In this document: positions 39,649 through 63,767 of the stretch, in pieces
How the letters are laid out: each line of letters starts with the position of its first letter
How positions within the stretch are numbered: position 1 is the stretch's first letter
Sequence record: PZ583739.1
DNA length: 64,000 bases
Direction: 5' to 3' (one strand)
Source of the DNA: a phage
Notes under the pieces: generated by a model
The model's database searches: none
Seen by the model: only the letters and a program-made list of their open reading frames with translations
What the model was told of the DNA's origin: nothing
Program-made: the position numbers and the translations under genes

Positions 39649-39793
39649 AATATTTTCCTCAGAAGTTAAAGAATACACGTACATGGTCAATCATAAAAAC
39701 GATTGGGAAAATGCTCAATACCATTAACAACACAAACATGTTCCAAATGACTTTAAGTAACTTTTTCATAATCATCTCCAGCAGTTGATAGGT

Positions 39794-55806: not shown

Positions 55807-55834
55807 TTTATTATCCTCATCAGTAGTTGATAGG

Positions 55835-55867
55835 AACATCTTAACGTGTCTTATTGCTCTTGTACAC
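55835..55867 (-). promoter_or_regulatory. putative early promoter
   Basis: minus strand GTGTACAA (55861-55867 rc) with weak -10-like TTAAGAT; leader CATCAACTACTGATGAGGA follows. Confidence 0.35.
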
Positions 55868-59659: not shown

Positions 59660-60396
59660 TACTTCCAAAAATGGCCGTTTGACCTATACATTCGGCCTGT
59701 CTTTTTATTTCTTTTACAAGCTGTGTATATATTTTGAGTATTGCCCGCCAATTGTAATAATTCCTTTGCCTCAGCTCCCGAATTATACTTTTCAAGTATA
59801 TTACCAAATTCATCGCATCTACAAACCGGTGTTCCAGTTGCCTTTCGGCATGCTTCTCGCCGCAACTTTTTCGTTTCTTCGGTTTGCGGATTTTCTTTAA
59901 ATCTTCTCATTTGTGCATCGCGATTCTTTTGCCGTTGTTCATCAGTAACTGGATTATTTTGATAATACAATTTTAATGAGTTAGCTATTTTACTTTTGGT
60001 TTTATCAGACACAGGGTGGTCGTTATGTCGCTTGTGTAAAGCAATTAACATTTTGTCTTTAAACTCGGATTGACTCCATAAGTTTGACATATGTTCACTA
60101 ACGGCTTTACTATGTTCTTTTCGCATCCATTCATATTTTGCGCTATCAAATTTGTCACCGCACATCCGGTGTATAGCAAACATTAATTTAGAAAGTCGAT
60201 AAATTTTAAAAAGTAACAAATGTGCAATAAAATGTTCTCTTGCTGATAACAATACCAAATTATCTTCGGTGTCAGGTCCACCCAAACACCTTGGTAGTAT
60301 ATGATGGGACTCCGTATAAAATGGGATATTCTTTTTGTTTAGGCCCCTTGCGAGGCCTTTGTCTATTAATTTATTATATAATTTTAGATAATTCAT
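59629..60396 (-). CDS. free-standing HNH homing endonuclease (mob-like mobile element)
   Basis: 255 aa; HNH core ESHHILPRCLGGPDTEDNLVLLSAREHFIAH; basic C-terminal region; ATG overlaps the gene 61 TGA stop (ATGA). Confidence 0.8.
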   Translation of the reverse strand: MNYLKLYNKLIDKGLARGLNKKNIPFYTESHHILPRCLGGPDTEDNLVLLSAREHFIAHLLLFKIYRLSKLMFAIHRMCGDKFDSAKYEWMRKEHSKAVSEHMSNLWSQSEFKDKMLIALHKRHNDHPVSDKTKSKIANSLKLYYQNNPVTDEQRQKNRDAQMRRFKENPQTEETKKLRREACRKATGTPVCRCDEFGNILEKYNSGAEAKELLQLAGNTQNIYTACKRNKKTGRMYRSNGHFWKYQDEEGIPVK

Positions 60397-61421
60397 ATTT
60401 TTGCATATTTGGATAATCGAAGTTTTGCCATTAAACCTTGTGCAATATTATCATTCATATAGGCTTCAATTTGCTCAGGCGTTGCTCCTTCCGATTTAAT
60501 CATTTCATTTATATCTTTCGTATGCCACGGTGCGTTGTCCCAGAACATAACAGCTTCTCCTGCATCGACTAATTTCTTCATACGTTTAATCGTATCAGGA
60601 TGTCTTGCTTCTGAATCCATCACCCATACTCTGGTTTCTGGGTAAGGAACAGCTTCCAATGCTAATGTTCCACCGGTTATCGCAATGCTGTTAGGGATAA
60701 ACAAACTATCAATTGGACCTTCCATTACCCATACGCGTTTACGCTCATCAATCTTGTCTACGCCATAGACTTTGGAAGCTTCTGGGTGAGCTTTGATTGT
60801 GATATATTTTTGTGGTGCATCTTTGCGAAGAGCTCGTCCTTGGAAAGATTCGATTTCTTTTTTGCCGTTGAAGATAGGAATAACCAAGCGTGGTTCATTC
60901 GTTTCATTCTTATACGTCCCAGGATTAACGGAGTTAACTAATGCAGGCCATTTGTTTGTAAACCATAACCGGTTCCAAACATTGCTCGGAATACACCGAC
61001 TTTTTACATACTTAATTATCGGATGTGCTTCTGGTAAAGTATCGAGTCTTTCACAAAAAGCAAGCTGCTCAATAACCGGAGTTTTTTCTGGTTCTTTCGG
61101 AGCTTCTGCAACTTCAGTGCGTTGTCGCCCAAATGCATTCTCCTTATACTTCTCAACCATATATTCCCGGTGTAAATCCGGCTCAAACTCTTTTATGTAT
61201 TTGCTTATATGCGTGGAGTAGTCACAGTTAAAACATTTCACGTAAACCGCGCCATCAGTCGGATTAGTATACGCCCAGAATCGAGCCTTGTGTGAATCTT
61301 TCTGGGAGTCCCCACAAACCTTGCAACGACAGTTTGCTTTAAATGTGCTCCCGGTGACTTCTCTATAACGTGGTTGATACGATAAAGCTCTGACTGCAAA
61401 TTCTTTATCAATATATGACAT
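60393..61421 (-). CDS. 61: DNA primase gp61
   Basis: 342 aa; zinc motif ...CKVCGDSQKD...C.NCDY...; ...VMEGPIDSLFIPNSIAITGG...; C-terminal IAQGLMAKLRLSKYAKI match T4 gp61 as remembered. Confidence 0.92.
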   Translation of the reverse strand: MSYIDKEFAVRALSYQPRYREVTGSTFKANCRCKVCGDSQKDSHKARFWAYTNPTDGAVYVKCFNCDYSTHISKYIKEFEPDLHREYMVEKYKENAFGRQRTEVAEAPKEPEKTPVIEQLAFCERLDTLPEAHPIIKYVKSRCIPSNVWNRLWFTNKWPALVNSVNPGTYKNETNEPRLVIPIFNGKKEIESFQGRALRKDAPQKYITIKAHPEASKVYGVDKIDERKRVWVMEGPIDSLFIPNSIAITGGTLALEAVPYPETRVWVMDSEARHPDTIKRMKKLVDAGEAVMFWDNAPWHTKDINEMIKSEGATPEQIEAYMNDNIAQGLMAKLRLSKYAKI

Positions 61422-62029: not shown

Positions 62030-62380
62030 TTAACCTCGCTTCATGAAGGCATTAAAAATCTGGTCGTCGACAGACTGTTCTTGAGCTTTGCCTACCCCAT
62101 TCAAAATGTCGTTCGCTTCATCAGATAACATGACTCCAATTTTGGGATTTCCCGTTATCCAGGCGGCGCAATCACGCACATTCTTTTTATCAAACGGATA
62201 ACCGCGAGTATCTTCATAAGGTCCTTTCATTACCAGGAATGAGCGAGCCTTTATGATAATATCATCTTTAACGATAATATAACCAATCGCCTGATTAAAC
62301 CGAGGGTCGCGGAATTCATAATGAGCATTACCATCATTATTGCTCGCCAGTTCAAAATTCAGAAAATTGTAATCATTCAT
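62030..62380 (-). CDS. hypothetical protein, paralog sharing C-terminus with the 62382 gene
   Basis: 116 aa ending SVDDQIFNAFMKRG. Confidence 0.45.
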   Translation of the reverse strand: MNDYNFLNFELASNNDGNAHYEFRDPRFNQAIGYIIVKDDIIIKARSFLVMKGPYEDTRGYPFDKKNVRDCAAWITGNPKIGVMLSDEANDILNGVGKAQEQSVDDQIFNAFMKRG

Positions 62381-62381
62381 A

Positions 62382-62819
62382 TTAATCTCGCTTCATGAAA
62401 GCATTAAAAATCTGGTCGTCAACTGAATAAACAGGGGTTTCCAGAATTTTCAAAAGACTGTTTTTGATGTACTTGCCAGGGATACCCATATTAACAATAC
62501 TGTCATTCAATTCATTATCAGGGTTGATGTCTTTAAATTCAAACCCGTCAAACTCAACCTTGTCAGGAATACCATCAGCGAAAAAATAAACCAATTGGTG
62601 CATTGTATTGCACGAAAATAATTTGGACTTGACCGCAATAAGTTCTTTCCAATGGTTTAATTCTTTGTTAAGAAGCTTATGAGCAAACGTAATTCTATCA
62701 TCACTATCAACAAGAAAATAACCCAGGTATTGATGGTCGTCGCTCCAAAACGCCCTGTATGCTTGTGCATTTGGATTTTTACAACGAAGTTTTTTGATAA
62801 CTAAATTTCTGTTAATCAT
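62382..62819 (-). CDS. hypothetical protein, paralog sharing C-terminus with the 62030 gene
   Basis: start reset to ATG 62819; ends SVDDQIFNAFMKRD. Confidence 0.45.
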   Translation of the reverse strand: MINRNLVIKKLRCKNPNAQAYRAFWSDDHQYLGYFLVDSDDRITFAHKLLNKELNHWKELIAVKSKLFSCNTMHQLVYFFADGIPDKVEFDGFEFKDINPDNELNDSIVNMGIPGKYIKNSLLKILETPVYSVDDQIFNAFMKRD

Positions 62820-62820
62820 T

Positions 62821-63114
62821 TTATTCACCTGTAACCCATTGAACAATCTTGCTGTTGTCAAATGAAGCATCGCAATACAGAACATAGTTATACTGCATAA
62901 CGTCACCAGAAGTCAATTGGTCAGATACTTCTTTAACCATATCAGGGCGGTCACGTTTAGTAATATTCATGATATCAGCATAAATCTGATGTTCAACATC
63001 AGTCTGGTCAGCAGTCATAGACCACTCACAAAGGTCTTTATCAAGTCCAGCAGTAACTGGAGCTGTACCACATGATGCTACGGTAAGAATTGCTGCGATT
63101 AATAACTTTTTCAT
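62821..63114 (-). CDS. sp: Spackle periplasmic protein
   Basis: 97 aa; signal peptide MKKLLIAAILTVASC...; ...DKDLCEWSMTADQTDVEHQIYADIMNITKRDRP... and ...VMQYNYVLYCD... match T4 Sp as remembered. Confidence 0.85.
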   Translation of the reverse strand: MKKLLIAAILTVASCGTAPVTAGLDKDLCEWSMTADQTDVEHQIYADIMNITKRDRPDMVKEVSDQLTSGDVMQYNYVLYCDASFDNSKIVQWVTGE

Positions 63115-63134
63115 TTCAATCTCCTCAGTAGTTG

Positions 63135-63172
63135 ATAGGGATAATATACTGCATTACCCCTTTGATGTAAAC
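63135..63172 (-). promoter_or_regulatory. early promoter upstream of sp
   Basis: minus strand GTTTAC (63167-63172 rc) ... TATATTAT; leader CCCTATCAACTACTGAGGAG. Confidence 0.4.
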
Positions 63173-63174
63173 TG

Positions 63175-63378
63175 TTATTTTTCGTTAGAACGATAATCAT
63201 ATTCAAAAACTTTATTGTCATTAACAAAGGCTTTAACCAGCGCATTATTCACTTCTGCATACTGCACTGTAACCCATTCAATCATATTTTTGTCACTGAC
63301 ATCCAGCGCGGTTTCTTTGGTAAACATATTACCATTTTCAAACCAACCAATAAACACTACGTTCTCTAATTTATACAT
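63175..63378 (-). CDS. dmd: Dmd, inhibitor of RnlA/LsoA toxins
   Basis: 67 aa; ...VVFIGWFENGNMFTKE... and ...VQYAEVNNALVKAFVNDNKV... match T4 Dmd (gene 61.5) as remembered. Confidence 0.85.
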   Translation of the reverse strand: MYKLENVVFIGWFENGNMFTKETALDVSDKNMIEWVTVQYAEVNNALVKAFVNDNKVFEYDYRSNEK

Positions 63379-63696
63379 TTAGATTTCCTCACAGAAGGCC
63401 CAGTCAGCGTGATAAACTGTTGCGCCTTTAGTATCATTTAAACAAACCACGTCAACAGGTGCAATCACACGATAAAGACGGGGTTCTCCTCCATATGAGC
63501 GAGCTGCTCTTCCTGCATAGATACGTGCCAAACCAATATCTTCAGTAAAAAACACACGCCCTAAATTTTTCTTACGCCCAACTTCTGACAGAACACCAGT
63601 TGCATCAGGAGGGCAAAGCATATTTTGGATTCCAGCATTAGAGCTTGACCCATGATAATAAACTTTGTATTCTGCCTTGCAATCAATGGTTTTCAT
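63379..63696 (-). CDS. hypothetical protein, unassigned; candidate counter-defence gene
   Basis: 105 aa; stop abuts the dmd ATG; MKTIDCKAEYKVYYHGSSSNAGIQNMLCPPDATGVLSEVGRKKNLGRVFFTEDIGLARIYAG...; own promoter cassette upstream. Confidence 0.5.
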   Translation of the reverse strand: MKTIDCKAEYKVYYHGSSSNAGIQNMLCPPDATGVLSEVGRKKNLGRVFFTEDIGLARIYAGRAARSYGGEPRLYRVIAPVDVVCLNDTKGATVYHADWAFCEEI

Positions 63697-63722
63697 TTTA
63701 TTCTCCAGTAGTTGATAGGGTC

Positions 63723-63755
63723 ATTATAACATAAGAAAAAGGGGCTGTAAGCCCC
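63723..63755 (-). promoter_or_regulatory. composite terminator hairpin / early promoter
   Basis: hairpin GGGGC-tgtaa-GCCCC (63741-63755) then T-run and TTATAAT on the minus strand, leader CCCTATCAACTACTGGAGAATAAA. Confidence 0.4.
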
Positions 63756-63767
63756 TTTTAAAATATT

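Follow-up and report, generated by a model that had tools for sequence, protein, structure and literature searches.

What does a small gene that stands directly before the antitoxin gene dmd in a T4-like phage encode, and does its product depend on Dmd? The question is raised by the phage sequence PZ583739.1, analysed here as one stretch of 64,000 nucleotides (nt; the window), in which the interval between genes 41 and 61 contains an open reading frame (ORF) of 105 amino acids (aa), located at 63379..63696 on the minus strand and beginning with ATG. A first reading made from the letters alone (the sequence-only reading) had left this gene unassigned. We find that it belongs to the ADP-ribosyltransferase (ART) superfamily, in the branch of the rifampin ADP-ribosyltransferase Arr. 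The reading that we prefer, and that we consider fairly probable, is that it encodes an immediate-early, free-standing and minimal Arr-like mono-ART that uses NAD+, modifies a target conserved in gamma-proteobacterial hosts and acts independently of Dmd.

A description that fits the gene exists in the literature. Iyer, Burroughs, Anantharaman and Aravind (2022; PMC9503650) reported a 'p0068-family ART + Dmd' pair from Escherichia, Shigella and Salmonella phages, with a predicted ART immediately upstream of Dmd; they counted the p0068-like family among the commonest viral ARTs, placed it in the H-Y-[EDQ] clade and read the ART as a toxin neutralised by Dmd. Our tblastn matches include phages of the same three host genera and the 105-aa gene is probably a member of this p0068-like family, to which it is matched by the published description and not by a member list. 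In addition, GenBank records already give the name 'ADP-ribosyl transferase' to the homologues of HX01, Konradin and Phynn, and 'rifampin ADP-ribosyl transferase' to that of KLB25, and the gene can no longer be called unassigned. As both the fold assignment and the linkage to Dmd have been published, the finding is not novel at the level of sequence; our analysis departs from the published account of the pair in that the distribution reported below argues against an obligate pair, and in that sequence and fold place the gene next to Arr. Four further records, MW233709 (UPEC01), MW250787 (UPEC07), PP693301 (P8) and KY979109 (SHP1), label the homologue 'clamp loader subunit DNA polymerase', a name that nothing supports and that is probably a propagated mis-annotation. 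The HIDEN-SEQ and DarTG1 papers make no mention of the ART gene.

Fold of the 105-residue protein and its kinship with Arr

Using tblastn, we recovered the ORF from 610 phage records, 601 of them at a coverage of at least 80%, and it corresponds to PHROG 2110 (function unknown; E = 1.3e-58). The encoded protein is identical (100%) in the Dhakavirus phages VR20 and UPEC01, and its identity is ~85% in Mosigvirus, ~71% in Klebsiella Slopekvirus and RB43, ~67-72% in Acinetobacter phages and ~60% in Aeromonas phages. Compared with the copy of Mosigvirus HX01, the ratio of non-synonymous to synonymous substitutions (dN/dS) is 0.10, with a dS above 1 and synonymous sites near saturation, these sites being saturated against more distant copies. 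The gene is under strong purifying selection, and a chance ORF is ruled out by its conservation and by dN/dS. Within the island, the ART is the best conserved product between the window and HX01 (85%, against 71% for Sp and 63% for Dmd), and between the window and Acinetobacter phage Konradin it retains 67% identity versus 48% for the N-terminal 104 residues of the primase.

The fold was approached by modelling and by profile searches. The AlphaFold2 model, built from 44 homologues, has a predicted local distance difference test score (pLDDT) of 85.8 and a predicted template modelling score (pTM) of 0.78, and is soft only at residues 31-47. Its top match in Foldseek is Arr, with a probability of 1.00 and a template modelling score (TM) of 0.62 over 103 of 105 columns, and in a viral structure library the first non-family match carries the annotation 'Ms Rifampin ADP-ribosyl transferase'. 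As modelled, the 105-aa protein has the split beta-sheet ART/NAD-binding fold. A profile of the close homologues alone finds no match in the PDB. A profile search of 1.84 billion cluster representatives returned 240 relatives, and the wider-family profile (A2) reaches Arr-ms (E = 0.0024) and Arr-2 (E = 0.015) in the PDB, where its only other match is an aminotransferase with an insignificant E value of 1.3. The Pfam family Arr-ms (PF12120) matches 14 of 40 short relatives (best 1.4e-8) and exceeds its gathering score on the same domain in many multidomain relatives; it gives no match at E <= 1 with the 105-aa protein itself. Since the protein has no Pfam Arr-ms match of its own and its relatives and family profile do reach Arr, it would represent a sister group of Arr and not a member.

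Model and profiles together thus identify the predicted protein as a minimal ART-fold domain related to Arr. The sequence-only reading had seen a hint of an H-Y-E-class ART in the H-G-S tripeptide of YYHGSSS (residues 13-19) and had at the same time judged 105 aa too short for the fold. The hint is borne out, as both the Foldseek comparison and the family profile (the two kinds of search that it had suggested) lead to Arr; the objection of length fails because Arr itself is a minimal, unusually small ART.

Putative NAD site and likeness to known ADP-ribosyltransferases

In the T4-like clade, the invariant residues are H15, G16, P30, R41, N44, L45, F49, T51, D53, L56, A57, Y60, A61, R63, G70, G91 and A92. 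In the wider family, invariance is limited to H15, G16, A57 and Y60, H15 and G16 being present in the 44 close and the 40 wider relatives, and E38, R41, F49, T51 and the G69-G70 turn are near-invariant. H15-G16-S17 aligns with H19-G20-T21 of Arr, of which H19 is catalytic, and provides the H-x-[ST] motif expected on strand 1, the His of which touches the ribose of NAD in ARTs. In the profile alignment E38, G40 and R41 correspond to E40, G42 and R43 of Arr, and F49 to its Y49; the ART strand-2 position is therefore occupied by an invariant Phe instead of Tyr or His, with T51 and the helix residue Y60 equally invariant. The soft loop 37-SExGRKKN-44 corresponds to the flexible loop of Arr, which has been described as forming the NAD site (PMC6092378).

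Arr (PF12120; PDB 2HW2/9IAF) and the phage protein resemble each other as minimal single-domain ARTs with an HG[ST] strand, an E-x-G-R loop, a second strand of the form hydrophobic-x-[ST] followed by a helix, and a G-rich turn leading into a long third strand. The phage protein has 105 residues versus ~143 and is without the C-terminal part of Arr, which we take to include the rifampicin-contacting residues. Arr is moreover a resistance enzyme, and the phage protein the product of a predicted phage early gene. The catalytic triad of Arr is H19-Y49-D84, and its hallmarks are the DPN[VL] and SN[YF] motifs and a rifampicin-binding cleft within 143 residues (PMC6092378, PMC8120803); of the triad, the phage protein keeps the His, has F49 in place of Y49 and shows no conserved acid at the position of D84, and neither motif has a conserved counterpart.

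These comparisons bear on the possibility of a true Arr-type activity on small molecules, by which the phage would neutralise rifamycin-like compounds or other diffusible inhibitors, chemical anti-phage defences among them, and keep the host RNA polymerase usable. T4-like phages need this polymerase throughout infection, the PDB contains no sequence relative besides Arr, which also gives the best global fold match, and one GenBank record (KLB25, above) bears the corresponding name. Such an activity is nevertheless very unlikely in our view, given the change of Y49 to Phe, the lack of conservation at D84/DPN[VL] and SN[YF], an end of the protein near the start of the Arr C-terminal part and the absence of an Arr-ms match of its own; genuine Arr has been listed in Microbacterium, Gordonia and PBC5 phages and not in T4-like phages (Iyer et al. 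2022, PMC9503650). A true Arr resistance enzyme or orthologue was rejected, as the defining Arr motifs are missing.

A second possibility is an RNA-end enzyme resembling Tpt1/KptA, which would use NAD+ on a terminal or 2'-phosphate, in RNA repair or ADP-ribose capping, and would thereby complement Dmd in shielding phage RNA against the RNase toxins of the host. The resemblance concerns one lobe: Tpt1/KptA has two domains, and the phage protein matches the NAD lobe (75 of 179 residues aligned), without the N-terminal winged-helix RNA-binding domain. No counterpart of the Tpt1 R-H-R-R tetrad (PMC8120803) was identified, the second His of the H-H-h motif is a Phe, and the 105-aa protein has neither a Pfam Tpt1-family match nor any sequence-level match to Tpt1/KptA. 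With a net charge of ~+1 (counted from the sequence), and with both Foldseek and the sequence profiles favouring Arr, we hold this activity to be unlikely.

Other phage ARTs are more distant. AcrIF11, an anti-CRISPR mono-ART (PDB 6KYF) with an H-H-D site (D115) whose target is N250 of Cas8f (PMC8120803), shows no detected sequence relationship to the phage protein. Alt, ModA and ModB of T4 are, like it, ARTs of T4-like phages, and according to their annotation work early on the host's machinery for transcription and translation; they differ in belonging to the R-S-E clade, in being much larger and in being unrelated in sequence. T4, which has all three, is without a homologue of the phage protein studied here: when its complete genome was searched in six frames by hmmsearch, using two family profiles and no filters, the best E value was 0.3, the window copy scoring 1.7e-57 as positive control, in agreement with the earlier impression that the product has no T4 counterpart.

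Several points weigh against the preferred reading. The single sequence, searched against Pfam, NCBIfam, PADLOC and the PDB sequences, finds no match. The residues of the NAD site were assigned from alignments and not from model coordinates. The catalytic Y49 of Arr is aligned with an invariant Phe, and no conserved canonical third catalytic (acidic) residue can be assigned across the family alignments: E103 is conserved in at least 90% of the T4-like clade and beyond it only in a subset of the wider family, N87-D88, in the region equivalent to D84 of Arr, is variable, and E38 is near-invariant but located in the NAD loop. The high conservation of the gene could partly be due to recent horizontal spread among T4-like phages. 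Finally, we found no experimental study, biochemical or genetic, of any family member in the literature.

As no catalytic acid can be assigned, the protein could bind NAD or ADP-ribose (ADPR) without transfer, and this leads to the proposal of a catalytically dead ART fold that would retain NAD+, ADP-ribose or an ADPR-derived immune signal and serve as a sponge or decoy, for example against signalling of the Thoeris type or NAD depletion. Besides the missing acid, the small size and abundant-type character of the protein fit this proposal, as does a distant homologue that adjoins a sponge-like gene with an Acb2/Tad1 hairpin (see below). The H-G-[ST] motif and the flexible NAD loop, however, are conserved at a level typical of enzymes, and relatives of the protein are embedded among other enzymes in polyvalent proteins. 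The sponges that we know of (Tad1, Tad2 and Acb2) have different folds, and we regard a dead ART as very doubtful. The sequence-only reading had named the gene its best candidate for an anti-toxin or anti-defence factor. An antitoxin-like stoichiometric binder is unlikely, since the protein looks like an enzyme, and an anti-defence role is a hypothesis.

Coupling to dmd and distribution of the two genes

The stop codon of the ART ORF (TAA, 63381-63379) directly adjoins the ATG of dmd (63378-63376), and the minus strand at the junction reads ...TGT GAG GAA ATC TAA ATG TAT AAA..., as had been noted before. The second cistron, dmd (63175..63378, minus strand), encodes 67 aa and is identified by Pfam PF17587 (E = 1.1e-20) and PHROG 2102. 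Upstream of the ART lies an early, sigma-70-type promoter-like site (63723..63751, minus strand; CTTACA-17-TATAAT with an upstream TG, 10/12 matches), which is the top sigma-70/T4-early-type site (63751-63723) of the 2.1-kilobase region scanned. It is followed by a conserved 5' leader, CCCTATCAACTACTG, and a Shine-Dalgarno sequence GGAG (63706-63703), which together occupy 63703..63720 on the minus strand and end 6 nt before the ART ATG. The putative Shine-Dalgarno sequence of dmd, GAGG (63387..63390, minus strand), is contained within the ART codons E103-E104, 8 nt before the dmd ATG, and neither the promoter and terminator scan nor inspection of the sequence revealed a terminator-like site between the two genes. 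One strong early-type promoter, no internal terminator and a dmd Shine-Dalgarno sequence inside the ORF indicate a bicistronic early ART-dmd unit, and co-transcription, already advanced in the sequence-only reading, is very likely on these signals.

The predicted unit is also delimited on both sides. An intrinsic-terminator-like hairpin, AAAAGGGGC-TTA-CAGCCCCTTTT followed by a T run (63737..63759, minus strand), marks the end of gene 41 and overlaps the -35 element of the ART promoter, and a further early promoter-like site, TTTACA-17-TATATT (63143..63171, minus strand), starts a separate sp unit and would bound the ART-dmd cassette, leaving a bicistronic unit flanked by two early promoters. 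Promoter and leader form a module that occurs twice on the minus strand, before the ART (63751..63697) and before sp (63171..63115), with the consensus [C/T]TTACA-N17-TATA[AT]T-N2-CCCTATCAACTACTG-(A)GGAG-ATG. The 15-nt leader is present in four copies in the window, the other two at 55821..55835 and 39779..39793 (minus strand), versus 0.06 expected by chance. This repeated module may be a boundary mark of shuffled early-gene cassettes. In this it would be comparable to the PeSL elements of T4-type phages.

How far does this coupling reach into function? The published interpretation would make the two genes a type II toxin-antitoxin system, in which the ART would be the toxin, with RNA as a possible substrate, and Dmd its antitoxin in addition to blocking RnlA and LsoA of the host (Iyer et al. 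2022). Adjacency and predicted co-transcription agree with it, and the order ART-dmd is kept, with abutting or overlapping codons, in Dhakavirus (the window), Mosigvirus HX01 (4-nt overlap) and Gaprivervirus VR7. In RnlA-RnlB, the host system that Dmd mimics, the toxin gene likewise comes first. A second, unrelated Mod-like ART, furthermore, adjoins Dmd in some Klebsiella phages (PMC9503650). Abutting codons are by themselves weak evidence of a functional pair because translational coupling to the downstream gene is the norm in these compact genomes.

The distribution of the two genes speaks against such a pair. Among the 610 records with the ART, 116 are from Klebsiella, 68 from Acinetobacter, 62 from Aeromonas and 29 from Enterobacter phages, and more than 300 have no detectable Dmd. 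Dmd was found in 798 records (tblastn, E <= 1e-3), mainly of Escherichia, Shigella, Yersinia, Salmonella and Citrobacter phages; Klebsiella, Acinetobacter, Aeromonas and Enterobacter are absent from the ten commonest organism names reported for it. The 552 of these 798 records that fall below 60% identity are probably mostly of the T4 type (Tequatrovirus), and T4 itself has dmd and no ART.

The surroundings of the ART vary where Dmd is not detected. Slopekvirus Matisse and RB43 carry it in the hoc-srd-rnlB region, where small hydrophobic proteins come next. Acinetobacter phage Konradin has it in the 41-61 interval with a 45-aa ORF behind it, and in Aeromonas phage 31 the next gene is that of gp30.6. 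We had considered that Dmd might always follow the ART, these downstream ORFs being divergent forms of it, and dropped the idea, as none of those in Matisse, RB43, Konradin and Aeromonas phage 31 gives a Pfam Dmd match at E <= 1; with the exception of gp30.6, most are small hydrophobic-looking proteins. In the Enterobacter phage CIP9 (Kanagawavirus; contig L013, 1498..1911) the order is 41, ART, a gap of 122 nt and sp, with no dmd, and this genome offers a natural 'ART-only' version of the same locus.

The distributions of ART and Dmd are largely independent: the two genes occur together in no more than a part of the Tevenvirinae, and either one is maintained where the other is absent. With the ART present without detectable Dmd in many records, phages of Klebsiella, Acinetobacter, Aeromonas and Enterobacter and CIP9 among them, and with Dmd alone in T4-type phages, an obligate toxin-antitoxin pair is unlikely. 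Two further observations point the same way, namely that one metagenomic ART homologue is a lone gene and that the ART is far more conserved than Dmd, unlike a co-evolving binding pair. Taken together, we judge the toxin-antitoxin interpretation quite improbable, and the functional tie to dmd that the abutting codons had suggested to the sequence-only reading appears weaker than supposed, the ART being equally conserved in hundreds of phages without detectable Dmd.

A broader form of functional linkage, also improbable, would treat ART and Dmd as two arms of one counter-measure against host RNA-targeting toxins, or Dmd as a regulator or antitoxin of the phage's own ART. With two arms, Dmd would block RNases of the RnlA/LsoA-type HEPN class stoichiometrically and the ART would act enzymatically, by ADP-ribosylating RNA ends in the protection or repair of phage transcripts, the toxin, or a conserved protein of the RNA machinery. 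If either version were true, a new substrate class would be added for a very small ART scaffold.

Predicted action, relatives in other contexts and neighbouring genes

Returning to the preferred reading, an Arr-like mono-ART that acts without Dmd, we infer along the following lines that the protein is catalytic, what kind of target it has and how the phage would benefit. Its own early promoter would drive transcription of the gene within the first minutes after infection, the ART being the leading cistron of the ART-dmd message. NAD+ would be bound by the strand with H15-G16-S17, the strand with F49-x-T51, the helix with Y60 and the flexible, invariant loop S37-E38-x-G40-R41-K42-K43-N44, and ADP-ribose would be transferred to a target conserved across gamma-proteobacterial hosts, in aid of host take-over or counter-defence. 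As a best guess, this target would be either RNA or some part of the RNA or gene-expression machinery. The ART would work alone, its coupling to dmd corresponding to shared early expression in a shuffled accessory cassette and not to dependence on Dmd.

Relatives of the domain are frequently parts of larger proteins. Among the best 150 of the 240 relatives, about one third are a domain in a protein of more than 250 residues (counted from the listed lengths). One of them (P0148, 954 aa) combines a lambda-type portal, the Arr-like domain and a 2H phosphoesterase, in this order; another (P0132) carries the Arr-like domain with a tape-measure-type domain; a third (P0147, 1955 aa) has an ART-PolyVal domain, and an Arr-like domain directly followed by NUDIX; and a fourth (P0174) joins the Arr-like domain to GNAT and Toprim. 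Polyvalent proteins are thought to carry effectors that are delivered with the virion (Iyer et al. 2017, PMC5512222). The presence of the domain in such proteins, together with the early-type promoter found here, fits an effector acting on the host at the start of infection. The uncharacterised domain DUF7178 is a recurrent N-terminal partner of the Arr-like domain, the multidomain set including P0133, P0141 and P0142.

Free-standing distant homologues were also recovered, and the contigs examined look phage-derived. One of these homologues is located on a metagenomic T4-like contig (L008, 1980..4354; Logan SRR33780589), among a series of small genes, immediately behind a NADAR gene and a gene with an Acb2/Tad1 hairpin, and with an RNA ligase nearby; from its gene content this series looks like an anti-defence cluster. 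The homologue mentioned above as a lone gene, also metagenomic, is flanked by genes on the opposite strand.

With ~40 residues fewer than Arr, the predicted enzyme would rank among the smallest ART domains so far, and more than 600 sequenced T4-like phages of Escherichia, Klebsiella, Acinetobacter, Aeromonas and Vibrio have retained it almost unchanged. Identification of the target of this very small and very conserved protein would bring the ART activities of the T-even phages to four, the other three being Alt, ModA and ModB, with the new one absent from the model phage T4; it would test the published hypothesis of Dmd as an ART antitoxin, and could expose a conserved weak point of the host or a new counter-defence. 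Given that the same domain occurs in virion-delivered polyvalent proteins, what is learned here would also apply to many unrelated phages.

In the window, the ART-dmd unit is placed between the C-terminus of the helicase gp41, upstream, and sp (62821..63114, minus strand; Pfam T4_Spackle, 1.7e-43), which follows dmd after a 60-nt spacer. Two small genes (62382..62819 and 62030..62380, both minus strand) come between sp and the primase gene, gp61 (60393..61421). In T4 the order is 41, dmd, 61.4, sp, 61.2, 61.1 and 61, with a gap of only 58 nt between 41 and dmd; neither the ORF list nor the Pfam scan of the window contains a 61.4/tifA-like gene between dmd and sp. ORF list and Pfam matches thus agree with the earlier statement that sp and dmd are adjacent here and that the 105-aa gene stands upstream of dmd, and the description of the 41-61 interval as an accessory, counter-defence interval was accurate. 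The two small genes between sp and the primase hold the place of T4 61.2/adfA. What they have in common, with one another as well as with T4 gp61.2 (anti-DarT factor A), is only a C-terminal tail, S[VI]DDQIFNAFM[KN]R[GD] (BLASTP against gp61.2, 3e-5 and 5e-6), and Pfam AdfA (5e-4) is limited to the C-terminal part of the 116-aa protein encoded by one of them. Judged from these alignments, the two genes look like differing N-terminal modules set on a common AdfA-like tail.

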